Below are positions 46,178 to 54,359 of a stretch of DNA of 64,000 bases, in pieces. Made by a program: the position numbers and the translations under genes. Source of the stretch: a virus (taxonomy: Duplodnaviria > Heunggongvirae > Uroviricota > Caudoviricetes); IMG/VR virus record IMGVR_UViG_3300035696_000002. One strand, written 5' to 3'. Position 1 is the stretch's first letter. The number at the start of each line of letters is the position of its first letter. A model generated the notes under the pieces. The model was not told the DNA's origin. It did no database searches and saw only the letters and a list, made by a program, of their open reading frames with translations.

Positions 46178-46957
46178 ATGGAGCCAGTAACGCCCTACGC
46201 AGTCGGCACTAAGGTCGTCAACAAGATCACCGGGGTCAAGGGAAAAATTGAATCCTTCGATCCTGTGAAGCTCACCTACGAGGTCGTATACGCCAACAAA
46301 GTCGGTCTCCGCCGCAACCAGCCGCACGCCACAATCGAGCCAATCAAGTCCACAAAGAAAATCCGCCTCGCCTCTTACAACGGTTTCATCGGGAAAGTTT
46401 TCCCTTACCTGCAATATGAGGGCAACGAAGCCCTCTTCGGTCGCCGCAACTCCCTGTCGTGGGAGAACCACGATTGCGTCCGGGAACTGGCGTGGCTCGT
46501 GGGTTGGGTTACCCTCCGTGGCTTCATGGTGATCTGGACTACCGAACAGCACAAACCCCGCGTGATTGCAGACGCCGCGAGGCAGAACGTGAATCTGGAC
46601 GGCGTCATGTTCGTTGGCGAGAAATCTGACTCGACTGCGTATCACTGCAAATTCATGAACCCCGGCTACGCCAAGCTGGATGTCATTCTCGGAAAGTTTT
46701 TTGATCCATGGGGCGGCGGTGGTTCCGGTCTCGAAATCAACAGCCGCAACTTCTACGACATCCTTGCCGATATCGGGCACCCACTACGCGAAGGCGTGAT
46801 GCCGACTGAGGATGACCTGAGGGCGATCCGGTCGCGGGTGGTCTCGGCTTTGGAACAGCAAGCCGGGCTGGCGGTCACCGAAGTGATCCGGTACTACGAC
46901 AAGGGCGTCGCCGGGATTCTGCCGGAGGATGCAGTCGGAGTGCCAGAAGAAGAGTAA
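46178..46957 (+). CDS. Hypothetical protein
   Basis: 259 aa, RBS GAGG, own promoter. Confidence 0.65.
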   Translation: MEPVTPYAVGTKVVNKITGVKGKIESFDPVKLTYEVVYANKVGLRRNQPHATIEPIKSTKKIRLASYNGFIGKVFPYLQYEGNEALFGRRNSLSWENHDCVRELAWLVGWVTLRGFMVIWTTEQHKPRVIADAARQNVNLDGVMFVGEKSDSTAYHCKFMNPGYAKLDVILGKFFDPWGGGGSGLEINSRNFYDILADIGHPLREGVMPTEDDLRAIRSRVVSALEQQAGLAVTEVIRYYDKGVAGILPEDAVGVPEEE

Positions 46958-46986
46958 CCCCAAGGGCCGCAACGATTTCCAATCAC

Positions 46987-47016
46987 TGGCCAAAACCCGT
47001 TTGGAATCGGTATACT
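46987..47016 (+). promoter_or_regulatory. Class A promoter TGGCCA-N18-TATACT at start of RNA island
   Basis: Identical hexamers and spacer at 59354 and 61487. Confidence 0.7.
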
Positions 47017-47184
47017 CTAAGTGTTGAGCGTTGCTAACCTTGATCCGCTCGACAGGCTACGGCCTCTAAAACAACATCAACCATCAACCTTTGCTGGCTT
47101 ACCTGCGAGTCAGGTAAGTTTAGGCGGTGTAAACCGTACATCAAAACGGGACGAAGCCGCCACTTCATCCCCCATGGAGGAAGC

Positions 47185-47391
47185 ATGACGCTGACACTGG
47201 CAAAGGCACGCGAACTGAATTTGGATTGCTACTTTTACGGCAGCGAGACACAGCGGACGGAGCATTTGACAACCTTCGCTGAGGTCACTGGCCGGGAGAC
47301 TTTCGAGTTCGAAGAGTTCGTCCACGGATTCAGGCTCATCGTCGGAGCAGTTACACCGAGGCCCCGGCCCGTAGTCACCGTGGTTGAATAG
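47185..47391 (+). CDS. Small hypothetical protein
   Basis: 68 aa, GGAGG RBS. Confidence 0.55.
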   Translation: MTLTLAKARELNLDCYFYGSETQRTEHLTTFAEVTGRETFEFEEFVHGFRLIVGAVTPRPRPVVTVVE

Positions 47392-47550
47392 TGCTGTTGT
47401 ACCGTCTGTGCTCGTGCATTCTGTCTGTGCGTCGGCATCCACATAAATCCGAGCGTCGTGGAACGACAGGCATGGGGCTTCTAAACCGCTGCACCGGGAC
47501 GCTGGTGCGGGGTGCACTGAGCACGGACGAGACAGCAGCAATGATTGCTT

Positions 47551-47647
47551 AGCGGCTTGCTGGAGAGCGGGTTCGTATGTGAGCAGGGTAGGCCACTCTC
47601 CACTACACGCGGACAAGGCGTGAGCATACGTGCTCCAGCCGCCCGCT
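47551..47647 (+). ncRNA. Candidate structured RNA (nested long stem)
   Basis: AGCGG/CCGCT, GCTGGAG/CTCCAGC, CGTATGT/GCATACG nested pairings; no credible ORF. Confidence 0.35.
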
Positions 47648-47868
47648 AAACAATCAAAGTTTTGTCAGTAGACTCGGCTGCTATAAACGCCATGACCCCA
47701 ACCGAGGCACGGATGGTCACACAAGTGGGCTGTCACTCCGCAAGAGGGTGATGCGTGCCAGAGTTCGGACGGGGAAACAGGTAAAGGGGCGGACTGACCG
47801 AGACGTGCCCGTCCCTGAGGATTCTATGCAAGGAGTGGTAGGGACTCGTTGCAGTGTTGTTGCGATGA

Positions 47869-48002
47869 GCCCCCGTCGTCTAGTGGTTAGGACGCCATGG
47901 GCTACAAACGTTGCTCTGGTTCTAGGCCGGGGCACAGGAATTCTAGGCATCCTGAGTTTGTGGTAAGTGGATACGCGAGTTCGAATCTCGCCGGGGGCAA
48001 CA
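47869..48002 (+). ncRNA. tRNA-like RNA with anticodon loop replaced by a branched two-hairpin insert
   Basis: Acceptor GCCCCCG/CGGGGGC, D arm GTCTAGTGGTTAGGAC, T arm GCGAG-TTCGAAT-CTCGC; ~70-nt insert; ends AACA, not NCCA. Confidence 0.7.
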
Positions 48003-48223
48003 TACCACGAGGGAACGAGGCGTTTGAAACCACGCCTACCTTGCGAACAAGCGTGGCCGACTATCCGGGTCGGGGATTGAAAAAGTTCGTCGTCCCGTAG
48101 GGACGATGTCCAGTGAATGTCCCTCCCGGTGGAGAGCGGCTATCAAGGCGTAGCAGAAGCAGAAACGTAAATGGGTCGCGACCATTGAAACTGGCGACGC
48201 AGCTACGCTGAGAGTTTAGCAAC

Positions 48224-48330
48224 ACGGTCGGCGGGGATGCACGACACGTCTAATACAGCGTGCCCCAAAGTTTGGTCGAACGGTCGGAGGGGATCGTGCC
48301 GGATTGAGCAATTCCGCCCCAAAGCTTGGT
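48224..48330 (+). repeat. Tandem pair of ~52-nt motifs ACGGTCGGnGGGGAT...GCCCCAAAGyTTGGT
   Basis: Copies at 48224-48276 and 48280-48330 with conserved ends and different hairpin interiors. Confidence 0.55.
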
Positions 48331-48404
48331 GGGCTATTTTCACCGTGCCGCCAGCAACACGCTGGATTTGCCGTGAACCTCCCATGACGGGACATAGCCC
48401 ACCA
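48331..48404 (+). ncRNA. tRNA-sized RNA with acceptor-like stem and ACCA end
   Basis: GGGCTAT/ATAGCCC + ACCA, 74 nt, internal hairpins CCAGC/GCTGG and TCCC/GGGA; no canonical D or T loop. Confidence 0.4.
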
Positions 48405-48423
48405 AACAATTTTCAGTTCGCTG

Positions 48424-48453
48424 TTGACAAAAGTCTGAGAACTACAGTATTCT
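48424..48453 (+). promoter_or_regulatory. Promoter TTGACA-N18-TATTCT
   Basis: Consensus -35, near-consensus -10. Confidence 0.7.
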
Positions 48454-48612
48454 CTTAATGTAAGCCTGCGATTGACCGCTGCTTGCCCTTAGTGGAGAAA
48501 CAGCCCAGAGGGCGAAAGGGTGTGAATAGCCCCGAGCATGTCCCGCAGCCCCCGCTTCCGGTTGAATATTCACTGACGCCGGAAGTCGCGATTGTAGGGG
48601 GACAACAATTTT

Positions 48613-49052
48613 AGGCCGGGAAAGCAGTATCGGCCAACAAGCGTGATCGGCTATGCCAGCCCTTCCTTCTAAACCTTGACTGCTTATCAAATCTAGGTCT
48701 GGCGATTTCTGATCCAAAAGCCACGGGGAGTGACGGCACTGGAGTAATGGTGCGGATTCGTGGTTGCAAGCAGCCGAAGGGGCTTCTCATGTAGAGCCTC
48801 TGAGATGGGGACGTTCTGGACTTGCAAGCGGCGTCGCGTAGCAACTGAAACGCGACAGACGAGGCCCCCGGCTCATTCCCTGATTAAGAATGGGGTAGAG
48901 TCTCGAAAGAGAAAGCACCTTAGATCAGTGCGGCGGCTCTGCCGGAGAAACCCTCTGCCCCAGTTAGTAATCCTGTGCAGGGTAAACCGCCGTATGACGT
49001 GAAGCTGCGGCGAGGAACGGATAGCGGTTATTGGCGAAGAGCCTACTGCACA
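48613..49052 (+). ncRNA. Candidate large structured ncRNA (~440 nt)
   Basis: Dense nested helices (GCCCTTC/GAAGGGGC, CTGCTT/AAGCAG, AGCCACGGG/TTCGTGGTT, TCGCGT/ACGCGA, GCTCATTC/GAATGGGGT, TGCGGCGG/CCGCCGTA); no credible ORF. Confidence 0.5.
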
Positions 49053-49062
49053 AAGTTTTTGC

Positions 49063-49091
49063 TTGACAGTTCGCCAGCAGTCGTATAGGCT
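49063..49091 (+). promoter_or_regulatory. Promoter TTGACA-N17-TAGGCT
   Basis: Consensus -35 and TAnnnT -10, ~19 nt before the tRNA-like RNA at 49110. Confidence 0.5.
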
Positions 49092-49109
49092 GGATTCTGA
49101 TATAGAAGG

Positions 49110-49260
49110 GCTGCCCGTCGTTTAAGCGTGGACTCGTTGTTGCAACAGCGACCCACACGGTAAGACGCCGGGCCTAAGGCGAAAGCCTCGATGGAAACGT
49201 CGTCGCAGCAATGCGGCACTCCCTCAGCGGGGATTGGGTTCAACTCCTGACCGGGCAGCT
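49110..49260 (+). ncRNA. Expanded tRNA-like RNA (hairpin in D loop, three GNRA hairpins in place of anticodon loop)
   Basis: GCTGCCCG/CGGGCAGC, D stem GTTT/AGAC with GGT, T loop GGGTTCAACTCC; no CCA. Confidence 0.6.
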
Positions 49261-49292
49261 TCTTCTTGTAATTCAAAATTTTCGAAATACCG

Positions 49293-49298
49293 AGTATT
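49293..49298 (+). promoter_or_regulatory. Class B (GTATT) promoter motif upstream of leader ORF and tRNA array
   Basis: AGTATT after an AT-rich tract; same motif precedes four leaderless-looking genes. Confidence 0.5.
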
Positions 49299-49320
49299 AC
49301 TGTAGAGACACCGAGGAAAT

Positions 49321-49452
49321 ATGAACTTCAACCTGACCAACGCGACCGCCGTAGCAACCACTGGCGGAGTTGTGTGTGCAGGTGAAGCTGGTACGGTCGC
49401 CGCTGGAGCGGCGGTCGAAGATACCATGTCCTCGGAGAATGATTTCGATTAA
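49321..49452 (+). CDS. Putative attenuator leader peptide, 43 aa: MNFNLTNATAVATTGGVVCAGEAGTVAAGAAVEDTMSSENDFD
   Basis: GAGG RBS; 22 of codons 8-34 are GNN; 3' end overlaps antiterminator; below ORF-track size cutoff. Confidence 0.75.
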   Translation: MNFNLTNATAVATTGGVVCAGEAGTVAAGAAVEDTMSSENDFD

Positions 49453-49481
49453 ATAAAACGAAATCAGAGACTTCCGGGGAC
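49428..49481 (+). promoter_or_regulatory. Antiterminator hairpin
   Basis: GTCCTCGGAG(49428-37)/TTCCGGGGAC(49472-81) plus TGATTTCG(49440-47)/CGAAATCA(49459-66); shares 49476-81 with the terminator. Confidence 0.7.
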
Positions 49482-49508
49482 GCCGAAAACGGCGTCCTTT
49501 TTGTTTTT
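49476..49508 (+). terminator. Intrinsic terminator directly before the first tRNA
   Basis: GGACGCCG-AAAA-CGGCGTCC followed by TTTTTGTTTTT. Confidence 0.9.
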
Positions 49509-49584
49509 GCACTGTTAGTTCAGCGGTTAGAACGCTTGCTCGACAAGCAAGAGGTCGGAGGTTCGAATCCTCCACGGTGCACCA
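49509..49584 (+). tRNA. tRNA-Val(GAC)
   Basis: Cloverleaf, loop TC-GAC-AA (C33), CCA encoded. Confidence 0.92.
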
Positions 49585-49590
49585 AGTTTC

Positions 49591-49665
49591 GCGGGCTTAG
49601 CTCAGTGGTAGAGCGGTACCTTGCCAAGGTACAGGTCGCGGGTTCGAGCCCCGCAGCCCGCTCCA
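49591..49665 (+). tRNA. tRNA-Gly(GCC)
   Basis: Cloverleaf, TT-GCC-AA, TCCA end. Confidence 0.95.
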
Positions 49666-49681
49666 TTTTGAAGGGTTGACC

Positions 49682-50395
49682 ATGGAACAACTGTACGGTG
49701 TCAACGGGTTGATTTTCTGGACGGAGCGAGAGATCGCGACCCGCAAGCTGGTTGAAAGTCATTTGGTTCAGGCGTTGAAAGACAGCCTGAAAAAGATGAA
49801 CCGGGCGTGGGAGTTCTTCCAAGTGGAGGCCCCAATTTTGACGCCGAGCGAGTTTGTGAACAAGAACTACTCGAAGGATGACATGTATGCCGTCGAGCAG
49901 AAGTTTGGCGACACGTTACAGGAAGCGAACAACCCGGCAGTGCAGTTGATTGCCCGGCCAGAAACAACGATGGGCTCGTATGAGTTCGCAAGATACTTGC
50001 TGAACCCGCACAACGAGCAGAAAGTGCGAATGCCCCTCGTGGTTTGGCAACATGGCAAAAGTTTTCGCCGGGAGCAGGATCAGCCGACGAAGTTCATGCG
50101 GTTGAAAGAGTTTTACCAGTTGGAGTTTCAATGCATTTATTCTCCAACGACCGGGATGGATTACGCGGCACATGTGATCCCGGATATGGCGGCAGCGATG
50201 CAGCAGTTGGTCGGCGAATGTAAGATCGTGGCCAGTGATCGTTTGCCGGATTACTCAGAATGCACGATGGATATTGAGCACAACAGTGGTATGGAACTTT
50301 GCTCGATCTCGTTGCGAAAAGATTTTGAAGGTGCGAAGGTTCTGGAGATTGCAGTCGGAACTGATCGCGTGGTGACAAAGTTTTTGGGGCTATAG
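49682..50395 (+). CDS. Class II aminoacyl-tRNA synthetase catalytic core, GlyRS (alpha2-type)-like, no anticodon-binding domain
   Basis: 237 aa; APILTP, RPETT, motif 2 QHGKSFRRE...MRLKEFYQLEFQ, ELCSISLRKDF, motif 3 LEIAVGTDR then stop. Confidence 0.8.
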   Translation: MEQLYGVNGLIFWTEREIATRKLVESHLVQALKDSLKKMNRAWEFFQVEAPILTPSEFVNKNYSKDDMYAVEQKFGDTLQEANNPAVQLIARPETTMGSYEFARYLLNPHNEQKVRMPLVVWQHGKSFRREQDQPTKFMRLKEFYQLEFQCIYSPTTGMDYAAHVIPDMAAAMQQLVGECKIVASDRLPDYSECTMDIEHNSGMELCSISLRKDFEGAKVLEIAVGTDRVVTKFLGL

Positions 50396-50462
50396 CTCAG
50401 TCTGGGAGAGCGGGTGCTTTGCAAGCATCAGGTCGTCGGTTCGAGCCCGACTAGCTCCACCA
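50386..50462 (+). tRNA. tRNA-Ala(UGC)
   Basis: G3-U70, TT-TGC-AA, ACCA; overlaps last 10 nt of aaRS-like ORF. Confidence 0.95.
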
Positions 50463-50474
50463 AGTTTACAATGC

Positions 50475-50551
50475 GGGGCCGTGGTGTAGAGGCCTAACAT
50501 GCATCCCTGTCACGGATGAGATCGCGGGTTCGAATCCCGTCGTCCCCGCCA
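50475..50551 (+). tRNA. tRNA-Asp(GUC)
   Basis: CT-GTC-AC, GCCA. Confidence 0.93.
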
Positions 50552-50649
50552 AATTTGATCGTGCCGTCTCGGACGGCGATAGCAGCCGGAGGCCAAAAGG
50601 CCTACGGTGTTGGGGCGGCTGGCCCCTTGAGCATCCGAGCTAAATTTCT

Positions 50650-50726
50650 GGTGCGGTAGCCAAGACGGTAAGGCGTCTGCCTGCAAAGCAGATCATGCGT
50701 CGGTTCGATTCCGACCCGTACCTCCA
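50650..50726 (+). tRNA. tRNA-Cys(GCA)
   Basis: CT-GCA-AA, TCCA. Confidence 0.93.
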
Positions 50727-50731
50727 AGTTT

Positions 50732-50806
50732 GGGCCAGTAGCATAACTGGGAATGCATCTCGCTTGCAACGAGAAAGAACGGGTTCGAATCCCGCTGTGT
50801 CCACCA
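50732..50806 (+). tRNA. tRNA-Ala(UGC), atypical acceptor stem
   Basis: CT-TGC-AA, G3-U70, ACCA; bulged acceptor GGGCCAG/CTGTGTCC. Confidence 0.8.
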
Positions 50807-50894
50807 ATTCGAGGGTGCCTGCGAATAACCCCAAATAAGCAGGTCTGTGAGAGCAATTCGGCGTATGTCTCACACCCTCTCACCGTTCGATGTA

Positions 50895-50969
50895 AGCGGC
50901 GTAGCCAAGTGGTAAGGTAGAGGTCTGCAAAACCTTTAGTCGCGGGTTCGATTCCCGTCGCCGCTTCCA
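50895..50969 (+). tRNA. tRNA-Cys(GCA), second copy
   Basis: CT-GCA-AA, TCCA. Confidence 0.9.
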
Positions 50970-50975
50970 AGTTTT

Positions 50976-51292
50976 GTGCCGAACCGGATGATCGCCGCCT
51001 GTTTCAGCAGGGGGAGGAAAGTCCGGGCTCCATAGAACAGCGTACCGGATAACGTCCGGGCATTCGTGAAGCGAAAGCGGATCGGGTGACGATTAGAGCT
51101 ACAGAGACGAGTCGGCGAAAGCCGGGTGAAACGAGCAATCTCTACGCGGAGCAATCTCAAATAGGCCGTGAGCCTCTGTTCGGGGCGTTATCAAACGGCG
51201 GGTTGAGAGCTTGAGCCAATCGGCAACGGTTGGCCTAGACGAATGATCGTCGCGTCGCAAGACGTACAGAACCCGGCTTATAGGTTCGGCAC
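50976..51292 (+). ncRNA. rnpB: RNase P RNA, compact bacterial type A-like
   Basis: P1 GTGCCGAACC/GGTTCGGCAC, GAGGAAAGTCCGGGCTCC, ACAGA, GGTGAAAC, GGAGCAA, ACAGAACCCGGCTTAT. Confidence 0.95.
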
Positions 51293-51302
51293 AAATTTTA
51301 AC

Positions 51303-51378
51303 GCGGACATCGCCTAGCGGCTATGGCCTCTGCCTTCCAAGCAGTTGATCGCGGGTTCGAGTCCCGCTGTCCGCTCCA
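51303..51378 (+). tRNA. tRNA-Gly(UCC)
   Basis: CT-TCC-AA, TCCA. Confidence 0.92.
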
Positions 51379-51439
51379 TATCCAGACGCCATAGGCTTGT
51401 TCGGTTGGCGGCATCCGGTGGAAGCCCGGAAACAAGTTT

Positions 51440-51515
51440 GGGGTCGTAGTTCAGTTGGGAGAACGCTTCCATGGCATGGAAGAGGTCAGGGGTTCAACTC
51501 CCCTCGGCTCCACCA
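51440..51515 (+). tRNA. tRNA-Ala(GGC)
   Basis: AT-GGC-AT, G3-U70, ACCA. Confidence 0.95.
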
Positions 51516-51520
51516 AAATT

Positions 51521-51619
51521 AACATCTGCCTATAAGCCAAGCGGCGAAAGCCGGGGCAGAGACCGACCGAAAGGCGTTCACCCATGAGTGAACATACTGA
51601 AGAGTCCTTGGCAGTTGTT
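51521..51619 (+). ncRNA. Candidate multi-hairpin RNA between tRNAs
   Basis: Closing AACA-CTGCC/GGCAG-TGTT; CGGC-GAAA-GCCG, CC-GAAA-GG, GTTCAC/GTGAAC. Confidence 0.45.
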
Positions 51620-51620
51620 T

Positions 51621-51698
51621 GGCCCGGTCGTCTACGTTCGGTTAGGACATCAGCCTTTCAAGCTGAAAAAAGGGGATCGTCGCCCCTGCGGGCTACCA
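51621..51698 (+). tRNA. tRNA-Glu(UUC), atypical T loop
   Basis: CT-TTC-AA, T loop ATCGTCG, ACCA. Confidence 0.85.
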
Positions 51699-51701
51699 AA
51701 T

Positions 51702-51837
51702 TTGTGTGATCCACGCGGACTCCCTTGAGTGGGTAGAAAAGCGTCGTAGCTGCGGCTGCGAGATTCGATACCGAGAGGTCGTTGGTTCCGGGAAACCCGA
51801 ATCAATCGTGGTGAAAGCCGACCGACTGGGACACACA
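51702..51837 (+). ncRNA. Candidate multi-hairpin RNA
   Basis: Closing TGTGTG-ATCCA/TGGGACACACA; TCGTAGC/GCTGCGA, GGTCG/CGACC, TTGGTTC-CGGG/CCCG-AATCAA. Confidence 0.45.
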
Positions 51838-51871
51838 GTTTTCGATTGCAGGGGGATGCTATGACACAGCA

Positions 51872-51987
51872 GGACGCTATTGGTCGTGTCCCGGTTGCGG
51901 GGTACGTCGAGAAATAAAAACCGGAGAACGACGGCACATCCGTTTTCTTCGCAGCAAGAAGAAACGGCTCCGTAAGAAGTGGCGTCC
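51872..51987 (+). ncRNA. Candidate multi-hairpin RNA
   Basis: Closing GGACGCTATT/AGTGGCGTCC; GTCGT/ACGAC, CCGGTT/AACCGG, CCGTTT-TCTT/AAGA-AAACGG. Confidence 0.4.
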
Positions 51988-52181
51988 GACTCACGAGGGC
52001 GGTTCGGAGAGGTACTGGCGAACTGTTGTTTTCACACCTAAGTGGGTGTGGTGCTGGCGTCTCACTTGTCAGGTACGATTTGAAGTGAAGTGGTTGATCG
52101 AGTGTGGGCTCACTGGGAATGAGCCGTTGCCGTTTGGCGAGAAACTGAATCGCTACACCGATCCAGATTCAGATTTGTAAT

Positions 52182-52257
52182 GCGGGAATAACTCAGTTGG
52201 TAGAGTGCTTGCTTCCCAAGCAAGATGTCGCGGGTTCGAGTCCCGTTTCCCGCTCCA
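52182..52257 (+). tRNA. tRNA-Gly(CCC)
   Basis: TT-CCC-AA, TCCA. Confidence 0.95.
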
Positions 52258-52323
52258 AGATTTAGGGGAGGCTCCGTTGTTGGACGGAGGTCAAAACTGG
52301 AGTCACGCCCATCCTCCCCAATT

Positions 52324-52401
52324 GCACTGTTAGCTCAGTCCGGTTAGAGCGTTCGCTTCACACGCGAAAGGTCGCAGGTTCGAGTCCTGCACGGTGCACC
52401 A
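52324..52401 (+). tRNA. tRNA-Val(CAC)
   Basis: TT-CAC-AC, ACCA. Confidence 0.93.
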
Positions 52402-52407
52402 AGTTTC

Positions 52408-52483
52408 GGGGCTGTAGCTCAGTTGGGAGAGCGTTCGCTTCGCACGCGAAAGGTCACGGGTTCAACTCCCGTTAGCTCCACCA
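52408..52483 (+). tRNA. tRNA-Ala(CGC)
   Basis: TT-CGC-AC, G3-U70, ACCA. Confidence 0.93.
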
Positions 52484-52484
52484 G

Positions 52485-52614
52485 TTTCGGTCTGGGCGGC
52501 GTATGCCGCAGCGGTCATAGGCGACCGTAAATAGGAAAGCACCCAAGGTTGGAAAGGCCCGTTCGATTCGGGAGAAGTTGCTTCTGGGGATGGTAAGACA
52601 ACCTACGACCGAAA
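52485..52614 (+). ncRNA. RNA with circularly permuted tRNA-like domain (YrlA-like layout)
   Basis: Terminal stem TTTCGGTC/GACCGAAA; AGGTTG/CAACCT encloses T arm CCCG-TTCGATT-CGGG, hairpin AGAAG/CTTCT, D-like TGGTAAGA. Confidence 0.5.
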
Positions 52615-52621
52615 ATTTTTA

Positions 52622-52683
52622 GGGCGGGTCACGGCGGGTAGCCAATGTGCACAACGCGGGTTCGATTCCCGTTCCGTCCACCA
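52622..52683 (+). ncRNA. 62-nt mini tRNA-Ala-like RNA lacking a normal anticodon arm
   Basis: GGGCGGG/TCCGTCC (G3-U70), ACCA, canonical T arm GCGGG-TTCGATT-CCCGT. Confidence 0.7.
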
Positions 52684-52721
52684 AGTTTCTAGCCTTTGCC
52701 GCAGTGCTGGAATTTTCAAAT

Positions 52722-52776
52722 GGGCGACCTAGTGGTAAGGCGGCTTAATGGGGTGCCGATTCCCCATCGTCCACCA
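52722..52776 (+). ncRNA. 55-nt mini tRNA-Ala-like RNA with no anticodon arm
   Basis: GGGCGA/TCGTCC (G3-U), ACCA, D arm CCT-AGTGGTA-AGG, T-like arm TGGGG-TGCCGATT-CCCCA. Confidence 0.65.
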
Positions 52777-52783
52777 AGTTTTT

Positions 52784-52859
52784 ACGCGGGTAGCTTAGCG
52801 GCTAAAGCGGTGCCCTTACAAGACACTCATCGTGGGTTCGAGTCCCACCCTGCGTACCA
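52784..52859 (+). tRNA. tRNA-Val(UAC)
   Basis: CT-TAC-AA, ACCA. Confidence 0.9.
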
Positions 52860-52863
52860 AGTT

Positions 52864-53043
52864 ATGAACGAAGAGCAGGTCTGGAAGTTTTACGCAGAGA
52901 GGTTTTGGACGCCCTGTCAGCACGTGAGACAATGCGTCGGCCTGTGTGCCCTCTGCTTGGAACAGACCGTGAAGATGTACGAGAATTTCGTTCCACAGGT
53001 TGTTTCGATAGGCTGTCCGGGGAATACGTCGAATACCCGGTAG
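52864..53043 (+). CDS. Possible small Cys-rich protein (59 aa)
   Basis: MNEEQVWKFY...CQH..C...CALC; no RBS; 3' part overlaps hairpins. Confidence 0.3.
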   Translation: MNEEQVWKFYAERFWTPCQHVRQCVGLCALCLEQTVKMYENFVPQVVSIGCPGNTSNTR

Positions 53044-53161
53044 GACTGATGGAGGAGACGGCTGCAACCGCGAGACCATTCAGTGTTGGCAACGACCTAG
53101 ATCGAAGCGATTGCATAATGCCGCCCGCTTGCAGGTGGGTTGAAAAGCAATCGCAGAGTTT

Positions 53162-53239
53162 GGCCCTGTCGTCTACGGAAGGCTAGGACACGACCCTCTC
53201 AAGGTTGAAAACCGGGTTCGACCCCCGGTAGGGCTACCA
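53162..53239 (+). tRNA. tRNA-Glu(CUC)
   Basis: CT-CTC-AA, ACCA. Confidence 0.9.
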
Positions 53240-53245
53240 AATTTC

Positions 53246-53322
53246 GGGGACGTAGCTTAACTGGTTAGAGCGTCATCCTGTCACGGTGAGAGGTACGGGT
53301 TCAACTCCCGCCGTCCCCGCCA
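53246..53322 (+). tRNA. tRNA-Asp(GUC), second copy
   Basis: CT-GTC-AC, GCCA. Confidence 0.92.
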
Positions 53323-53535
53323 TTATCCGAAGATCAACCGCACGAGCAGCACAACCGCTACCACCTCCCAGATATCAAGTTCACCACCTCCGGCGTCGAA
53401 CCAGCGACGCACGCGAATCTGCCATGGCACTGGCGGCGGATTTTCCATCGCCCGTATCGCGGCAATTCGGGTGTCCCACATGAACTGGTGAAGGTTGCAC
53501 ATCTTGTCCGGCTGGCAATCTTTGCAATCTGGCAT
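53323..53535 (-). CDS. Small membrane protein with N-terminal CxxC...CxxH
   Basis: AGGAGG RBS before MPDCKDC; hydrophobic C-terminus; stop abuts tRNA-Asp CCA. Confidence 0.55.
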   Translation of the reverse strand: MPDCKDCQPDKMCNLHQFMWDTRIAAIRAMENPPPVPWQIRVRRWFDAGGGELDIWEVVAVVLLVRLIFG

Positions 53536-53621
53536 ACGGCCTCCTACCATATAAACGTTTGAGCCGGGCATTTCTCTGCACCTGAGCAAACTTTATTTTG
53601 GTAAACTGAGTATTCTCTACT

Positions 53622-54359
53622 ATGCGTCTCCAGCTAATCAGCGACCTTCATACCGAGTTCTACGAGAACGTGCTCGAAATGTGTTTGAGCATCGAGATCG
53701 TGCCTGATCTTGATTTTCTCGTCATCGCCGGAGACCTCGTATCCGGGATGCAGTCCCTTGAGGAAGTGCGAGCCGCTTTCTCATTCTTCGCCAAGAAAGC
53801 CAAGCACGTGCTCTACGTGTACGGCAACCACGAATATTACAACAGCAGTGGCCCGGCTACGGAATTCAGAATCAAGTCCGTGGTGCCCGCGAACGTGCAC
53901 ATCTTGGACAACAACGAGATAACGCTTGAAGGAATTCATTTCTACGGCGGGGCGATGTGGTTCACCCGCGTCATCAACCCACTGGATGATCTCAACAAAT
54001 TTGGCATGTCCGACTTCACTCTGATTCAGGGCCTTGAGTCGTGGGTGTACAAGACCAACGCCCAGTTCACTGATCGGGGCCGGAGTCTTGTCAAGCCGGA
54101 AACAATCGTTATCACGCACCACCTGCCGCACCCGCAGAGCATCAATCCACGCTTCCGTGGCAGCAGCCTCAACCCGTGGTTCCTGTGCGACCAGACACGA
54201 ATGATCGCGATCAACAAGCCACGATTCTGGTTGCACGGGCACACGCACGACGCCTGCGATTACTTCGTCTACAACACGCATGTGATCTGCAACCCCTACG
54301 CCTACCCGCGTGAGCGAATGATGAAGGGAGTGTACAAACCTGTGGTGATCGAAGTATGA
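53622..54359 (+). CDS. Calcineurin-like metallophosphoesterase
   Basis: SDLH, AGD, GNHE, THH, HGHTH motifs. Confidence 0.92.
   Translation: MRLQLISDLHTEFYENVLEMCLSIEIVPDLDFLVIAGDLVSGMQSLEEVRAAFSFFAKKAKHVLYVYGNHEYYNSSGPATEFRIKSVVPANVHILDNNEITLEGIHFYGGAMWFTRVINPLDDLNKFGMSDFTLIQGLESWVYKTNAQFTDRGRSLVKPETIVITHHLPHPQSINPRFRGSSLNPWFLCDQTRMIAINKPRFWLHGHTHDACDYFVYNTHVICNPYAYPRERMMKGVYKPVVIEV

Follow-up and report, generated by a model that had tools for sequence, protein, structure and literature searches.

A probable leader-peptide attenuator in front of the GNN/Cys transfer RNA array of a 463-kb phage genome, with codon-matched leaders before five other arrays

The DNA analysed here is a stretch of 64,000 nucleotides (hereafter the window) from the Caudoviricetes record IMGVR_UViG_3300035696_000002, corresponding to bases 254836-318835 of a 463,033-bp virus genome (G000) that carries a total of 69 to 71 transfer RNA (tRNA) genes in separate blocks grouped by codon family, together with a transfer-messenger RNA (tmRNA) gene and a bacterial-type RNase P RNA. 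One of these blocks, at 49509-53322 on the plus strand of the window, holds 16 tRNAs that represent all 12 GNN anticodon types and include two copies of tRNA-Cys, a count in which a tRNA-Glu(UUC) detected by Rfam only (51621-51695) is included. Immediately upstream, a promoter, a ribosome-binding site, a short open reading frame (ORF), an antiterminator and an intrinsic terminator are packed into 240 nt that abut the first tRNA gene. An earlier note, made from the letters of this DNA, had read this leader as an attenuator gating the array. Here, we present the computed anatomy, codon matching, mutually exclusive folds and conservation with covariation of the leader, which support that interpretation and make a ribosome-mediated (leader-peptide) transcription attenuator in front of the GNN/Cys array its probable identity.

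In addition to the tRNAs, the putatively gated unit contains the bacterial-type RNase P RNA (50976-51296) and, within the array, a 239-aa ORF (49676-50395) matching the class II aminoacyl-tRNA synthetase (aaRS) core (PF00587, 28.5 bits, slightly below the cut-off). This ORF comprises the core alone, without an anticodon-binding domain, and its relatives are found in many huge phages, frequently within tRNA arrays. No strong terminator was found inside 49509-53322, and a promoter search gave no promoter-like site either inside the unit or between the leader terminator and the array, and thus no independent start past the terminator of the kind that the earlier note had named as speaking against attenuation.

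The leader is preceded by a sigma-70-like promoter at 49272-49300 with a -35 element TTCAAA (49272-49277), a 17-nt spacer and a -10 element TATTAC (49295-49300); the GTATT motif of the earlier note falls within it. This promoter is one of a six-member family, the other members being those of four further plus-strand leaders described below and of the tmRNA gene, and when a weight matrix built from the six was run over the 463 kb, only those six sites scored above 39 bits, the next best reaching 18 bits. The tmRNA gene (G000 242851-243227, minus strand) has the leader-type promoter and no leader ORF, which suggests that the family marks a small set of translation-apparatus transcription units. 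Downstream of the promoter, a GAGG ribosome-binding site (49313-49316) stands 4 bases upstream of the ATG of the leader ORF (49321-49452; 43 sense codons and TAA). By exact match, the 43-aa peptide is a called gene on 8 contigs, all from the same phage (the contig inspected carries identical DNA), and a protein search with it returned no homolog except itself.

The intrinsic terminator (49477-49508) consists of a 9-bp G+C-rich stem (49477-49485/49490-49498; -17.2 kcal/mol), a 4-nt loop and an 11-nt T-rich tract, and its T-run ends at 49508, adjoining the tRNA-Val gene that opens the array at 49509. Strong intrinsic terminators are rare in this genome, with only 26 on both strands of the 463 kb, five of which are leader terminators. 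The ORF, the GAGG site and the terminator beside tRNA-Val are thus all present as the earlier note had them, and so is the 18-bp hairpin that it saw capturing the 5' strand of the terminator. This antiterminator hairpin (49428-49481), formed by an outer helix (49428-49437/49472-49481) and an inner helix (49440-49447/49459-49466), is the minimum-energy fold of 49426-49483 (-24.1 kcal/mol, z = -5.9, none of 200 shuffles as good). Its loop contains the stop codon of the leader ORF (49450-49452), and six bases, 49476-49481, are common to the antiterminator and the 5' arm of the terminator. For the full leader including the 5' untranslated region, the two states differ by 0.6 kcal/mol, with -82.9 kcal/mol when the antiterminator is forced and -83.5 kcal/mol when the terminator is forced.

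A recount of the codons agrees with the composition given in the earlier note. The regulatory run, codons 8-34 (49342-49422), holds 22 GNN codons, four Thr codons and one Cys codon, and the whole ORF has 25 GNN codons of 14 of the 16 types, GAC and GGG being absent. With expected matches derived from wobble rules and the phage's own codon usage, the array reads 26 of 42 leader codons against 15.6 expected (binomial p = 0.001; tRNA-Glu(UUC), which reads the GAA codons of the leader, is counted).

The earlier note had proposed checking whether further tRNA arrays of this genome have matched leaders; five of them do, and the same module recurs there with each leader written in the codons of its own array. 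These arrays carry Ser (with Leu-UAA), Trp/His/Arg/Asn/Gln/Lys, Tyr/Leu/Phe, Pro/Met/Phe and, on the minus strand, Ile/Thr/Gln tRNAs; the plus-strand arrays start at G000 62866, 87720, 341324 and 346044 and the minus-strand one runs from 236873, each with a short ORF just upstream. The Ser leader contains all six Ser codons and, within the Ser run, the codon TTA, which accounts for only 2% of Leu codons and whose tRNA-Leu(UAA) gene belongs to the Ser array. Lys, His, Asn, Arg (all four CGN), Gln and Trp codons are clustered in the leader of the Trp array, which holds exactly those tRNAs, and the remaining leaders comprise five Leu codon types with Tyr and Phe (Tyr/Leu leader), Pro, Met and Phe codons (Pro leader), and all four Thr codons with Gln, Ile and Lys (Ile/Thr/Gln array; hereafter the Thr leader). 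Enrichment for own-array codons was found in 6/6 leaders, with p from 5e-6 to 0.02 (Fisher 3e-13 combined), and among the 720 permutations of leaders over arrays the true pairing was the best, with 81 matches and the next best giving 73. All leaders of this genome except the Pro leader have a strong terminator. An exact search for a 17-nt stretch common to the GNN and Thr leaders gave one chance match, in a coding region, and the terminators at G000 320708 and 322273, which have similar stems, were set aside as ordinary gene-end terminators.

Related phages were reached via the aaRS-like gene of the array, and two of them carry the same array: G001 (locus L002) and L060, in which a neighbouring gene is 72-74% identical. 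Both have orthologous GNN leader ORFs (L002:3666-3806 and L060:2266-2385), each with a terminator that abuts tRNA-Val, and both retain the ORF, the GNN-rich run, the antiterminator and the terminator. The run stays rich in GNN codons though its sequence changes, and the reading frame and the position of the stop codon in the antiterminator loop are kept, as is the single Cys codon of the run in all three orthologs, whose arrays all include tRNA-Cys. Outside the structured parts, the peptide is poorly conserved. The stop is TAA in all ten leader ORFs of G000, G001 and L060 except one in G001, which is TGA.

A consensus fold of the three orthologs recovers the outer antiterminator helix unaided. 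In this helix, 30/30 cells are paired, and of its ten pairs three show compensatory double changes and two show compatible single changes; values as high as these arise in 9 of 500 shuffles, and only 33-77% of cells are paired when the partner strand is slid. Pair counts were limited to the outer helix because MAFFT misaligned the inner helix and the terminator. The sequence of the inner helix is entirely different from ortholog to ortholog, yet its two strands are perfectly complementary every time, and the top of the terminator stem also carries compensatory changes. The alignment of homologous leaders thus bears out the earlier note, with ORF, GNN/Cys run and antiterminator kept in two relatives. 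A further hairpin lies inside the ORF at codons 23-36 (49389-49426; -18.8 kcal/mol, z = -2.9) and is nearly invariant in nucleotides among the orthologs, its core being kept in L002 and L060 even at synonymous sites; we regard it as a candidate RNA polymerase pause hairpin.

G001 also carries orthologs of the Tyr/Leu and Pro leaders, in which the Leu, Tyr, Pro and Phe positions are kept and the interspersed residues change; a pattern search with the Tyr leader matched G001 only. Among 48 metagenome loci with the aaRS-like gene, most are short contigs that end before the leader, and L060 is the sole carrier. No leader was found beside the gene in L003-L009, which hold more distant relatives of it. 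The 16-nt core of the in-ORF hairpin gave 31 matches in viral contigs, of which only L023 and L035, both of the G001 lineage, are real, and a longer pattern returned the same two.

The alternative folds were compared in silico for the eight leaders with canonical terminators, namely GNN (three genomes), Ser, Trp, Tyr (two genomes) and Thr, by masking a ribosome footprint and folding the RNA as far as the terminator loop. With the footprint at the stop codon, at most two bases of the terminator 5' arm were paired upstream in 8/8 leaders. With no ribosome, or with a stall early or midway in the run, the terminator 5' arm was held in a long hairpin enclosing the stop codon, again in 8/8, and the on/off logic proposed in the earlier note was in this way reproduced in every leader. 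The geometry is shared as well: in all eight, the antiterminator 5' strand starts 1-4 codons beyond the end of the matched run, the antiterminator encloses the stop codon, 47-58 nt lie between the stop codon and the 3' end of the terminator, and the antiterminator (-22 to -36 kcal/mol) is more stable than the terminator (-14 to -21 kcal/mol).

Comparable leaders were also found in distant huge phages, for which 22 loci were reached via a HisRS-like gene of another array; two of these leaders, in L115 and L118, were spotted by eye, the automatic ORF-plus-terminator finder having missed both. The first (L115:1063-1303, on a 578-kb contig) has a 30-codon ORF with 13 consecutive Ser/His/Tyr/Cys codons before a Ser/Cys/Tyr/His array, with 16 of 29 codons matching against 3.9 expected (p = 1.5e-7). 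The second (L118:857-1098, on a 155-kb contig of 31% G+C) has 14 consecutive Lys/His/Ser/Phe/Trp codons before a Lys/Arg/Trp/Ser/His/Phe array (p = 0.002), and its antiterminator strand starts directly after the codon run. Since these two leaders match their differing arrays, leader composition follows array composition across lineages. In a low-G+C relative, L086, a Pro/Tyr/Trp/Asp/Cys/Gly array is preceded by an ORF, an antiterminator and a terminator; this case is counted for architecture only, its codon match not being significant (15/55 against 11.6, p = 0.17). The L115 leader has two tandem terminator-like hairpins.

From these results we infer translation of the ORF and its coupling to transcription, as well as the sign of the response and its physiological trigger. 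Transcription would start at the sigma-70-like promoter, and the 43-codon leader would be translated while being made. If decoding of the run (Ala, Val, Gly, Asp, Glu and Cys codons) is fast, the ribosome would reach the stop codon and, because this codon lies in the antiterminator loop, would keep the antiterminator 5' strand unwound, so that the terminator could fold and transcription would end at 49499-49508, one base short of tRNA-Val. When a matching charged tRNA is scarce, the ribosome would stall in the run, the antiterminator (49428-49481) would form behind it and lock six bases of the terminator 5' arm, and the polymerase would continue past the terminator, transcribing the aaRS-like gene and the RNase P RNA along with the 16 tRNAs. 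Once tRNA supply is restored, the switch would shut again by negative feedback. Each set of tRNAs is thus probably made only when ribosomes read the codons of that set slowly.

Several observations weigh against this interpretation or narrow it. GNN codons make up 37% of the phage's codons and are therefore common enough that the enrichment of the GNN leader by itself (26/42 against 15.6) is moderate. The claim of the earlier note that the leader cycles through synonymous codons did not hold up, as its 15 distinct codons are what genome codon usage predicts with the peptide fixed (P = 0.31); only the six leaders taken together exceed expectation in synonymous diversity (54 against 46.6, P = 0.001). 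Ten codons of the GNN leader (6 Thr and 4 Asn) are read by tRNAs of other arrays, and stalls there would cross-induce the GNN array. A stall on any of the last six matched codons would cover the antiterminator strand, while the other 20 of the 26 leave it free. Among its promoter family, the GNN copy has the weakest -35 element, with 3 of 6 matches. In both G000 and G001 the Pro leader lacks a canonical T-run terminator, and conservation does not extend to its Met codons. On the physiological side, additional tRNA would be no remedy for ribosomes stalled by amino-acid starvation, which leaves the selective signal ambiguous.

Uncertainty also attaches to the state without translation. For this state the folds predict read-through, the exception being a pairing of the antiterminator strand with the ribosome-site region. 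The full-length fold of the GNN leader does contain such a pairing (49311-49317 with 49429-49435, in the antiterminator 5' strand), and it is not kept in the two orthologs, so both the untranslated default state and a classical anti-antiterminator of this leader are uncertain. In full-length folds of the Ser, Tyr and Thr leaders, by comparison, the codon run pairs with the antiterminator strand in the manner of the classical 1:2 helix. The likeness to trp, his, thr and ilv attenuators drawn in the earlier note is seen in the terminator/antiterminator switch with its enclosed stop codon; the anti-antiterminator of the GNN leader is not conserved, and the conserved in-ORF hairpin (49389-49426) might serve as pause site instead.

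Among other explanations, the one that survives best, improbable as we judge it, is that the switch is real and is set otherwise, by binding of uncharged tRNA (in a T-box-like manner), by a phage or host RNA-binding protein or by the general elongation rate, with the ORF being incidental. With so little energy between the two folds, any ligand could tip the balance, and the in-ORF hairpin is conserved at the nucleotide level, which means that part of the ORF conservation could lie at the level of the RNA. Against this, a ligand-binding RNA would have no need of the in-frame enrichment for own-array codons that 6/6 leaders show, and the orthologs change the sequence of the run yet keep its GNN richness, its frame and the stop position in the loop. 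Furthermore, no match to the T-box covariance model or to another Rfam family was found at E up to 1.

Still less probable, in our view, is that the ORF simply encodes a small protein and has a promoter and terminator of its own, in which case the array would be transcribed by constitutive leak-through or from another start and the codon match would be a by-product of a small Ala/Val/Gly-rich peptide. Short peptides rich in Ala, Gly and Val are common, the ORF is called by gene callers, and the enrichment of the GNN leader taken by itself reaches only p = 0.001. This explanation nevertheless leaves unaccounted for both the five other array-matched ORFs of different composition, along with those of L115 and L118, and the covarying helix that overlaps the terminator 5' arm; nor does it sit well with a peptide that has no homologs beyond itself and is poorly conserved outside the structured parts, or with the lack of another promoter for the array in the promoter search. 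An attenuator of opposite sign, in which a stall would uncouple ribosome and polymerase and cause termination (e.g. by Rho) so that the array is made only during smooth translation, has a precedent in the uncoupling-dependent polarity well known in bacteria and could draw on the Pro leader's lack of an intrinsic terminator, but is the least credible of the three, as terminator and overlapping antiterminator give the classical sign in 8/8 constrained-fold sets and a stop codon inside the antiterminator is the arrangement that turns completed translation into termination.

Read as a leader-peptide attenuator, the GNN leader is closest to the multivalent leaders of enterobacteria, above all ilvGMEDA, whose leader has Ile, Leu and Val codons, and thr, with Thr and Ile codons; trpL, hisL, leuL and pheL are other leaders of this group. 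The likeness extends to the short ORF, the cluster of sensed codons, the terminator and the stronger overlapping antiterminator, as well as to the placement of the stop codon such that finished translation blocks the antiterminator, and the distance from stop codon to terminator in the phage leaders is similar to that in the trp leader. The classical 1:2 helix of the enterobacterial leaders has a counterpart in the Ser, Tyr and Thr phage leaders, but none that is conserved in the GNN leader. Enterobacterial leaders control biosynthetic enzymes, whereas the phage leader would control tRNAs, RNase P RNA and an aaRS-like gene, and because these are the regulated genes, the product would feed straight back on the sensor. 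The phage system further differs in sampling up to six amino acids and twelve or more anticodons with one leader, and in forming a family of six leaders in one genome, one per array. Searches of 46900-53700 and of the five paralogous leaders matched none of the Rfam leader families (Thr_leader, His_leader, Leu_leader, Trp_leader etc.) at E up to 1.

T-box riboswitches are likewise terminator/antiterminator switches before translation-related genes that report the state of a particular tRNA. Uncharged tRNA is bound by the T-box RNA itself, by way of a specifier codon and the T-box motif, and no ORF is required; a T-box reads one tRNA, whereas the phage leader has an ORF and samples many. Leader-peptide attenuation of a component of the translation apparatus, as proposed for the phage, is known from pheM-pheST, where the leader peptide governs Phe-tRNA synthetase, and His-leader-controlled hisS paralogs have been described in bacilli (PMC2965389). 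In these cases the controlled product is the synthetase of a single amino acid; tRNA genes are not among the targets, and the elements lie outside phages. Phage tRNA clusters have been seen as replacing host tRNAs that are scarce, degraded or cleaved by defence nucleases (PMC10264068; PMC11555353), and the arrays of G000 would be supply or counter-defence blocks of the same kind, with a codon-matched sensor per block as their distinguishing feature. In the literature searched, which included a survey of attenuators, leader peptides were reported for amino-acid operons and synthetase genes and none for tRNA genes or phage tRNA arrays, and no account of demand-dependent control of phage tRNA clusters was found.

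The reason for the tRNA genes of large phages has been a matter of debate for decades; proposals include codon compensation, making up for host tRNAs that have been degraded, and evasion of defences that cleave tRNA. A codon-matched attenuator per array would imply that each tRNA set is made in response to slow decoding of its codons, and would make the purpose of phage tRNAs directly testable. It would also extend leader-peptide attenuation to RNA genes that feed back on their own sensor, to phages and to leaders sampling multiple isoacceptors. Beyond this, the leaders could offer compact codon-specific sensors of decoding capacity, and could be used to predict the functional members of an array and their grouping. 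More tentatively, and with a confidence just short of even, we propose that the tRNA arrays of huge phages are autonomous, self-limiting supply circuits with the leader as their codon index, forming an inducible layer of counter-defence and homeostasis that is widespread in unrelated huge phages. A block would then be switched on when decoding slows through anticodon-nuclease cleavage, decay after host shut-off or tRNAs too rare for the phage's codons, and off again once the phage tRNAs restore decoding.

Further features were observed around the leaders. In the Pro/Met/Phe leader (G000 345941-346043, L104; G001 74877-75051), a long hairpin encloses the stop codon, and its 3' strand could pair with the 5' end of tRNA-Pro; this leader may work by a different route, e.g. 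processing. Directly upstream of the GNN leader promoter, 49108-49262 resembles a structured RNA, with a 10-bp closing stem around a multibranch fold (-67 kcal/mol, z = -2.7) and a 3' part like a T-arm and acceptor strand, and received no tRNA, tmRNA or Rfam call. Further upstream, 48424-48615 contains a sigma-70-like promoter (10/12 matches) followed by a noncoding element of about 170 nt. This element has no Rfam match and is 74% identical to L060:2039-2214, which lies immediately upstream of the GNN leader promoter there; the consensus fold of the two sequences has 34 pairs and zero compensatory changes. A tRNA-like gene at 47869-47999 has its anticodon arm interrupted by about 55 additional nucleotides; it scores 44.8 bits with the Rfam tRNA model, and ARAGORN, with introns allowed, calls it as Leu(gag) with a 52-nt intron, a doubtful call. 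Elsewhere in the genome, about 330 nt of degenerate G-rich short repeats (G000 96815-97140) stand immediately upstream of a strong terminator. No leader was found before a minus-strand block holding three CUA-anticodon tRNAs and tRNA-Lys (G000 239667-238747). In this block, the three amber-reading tRNAs (238747-239065) adjoin the tRNA-Lys genes, which suggests that TAG is read as sense at some stage.

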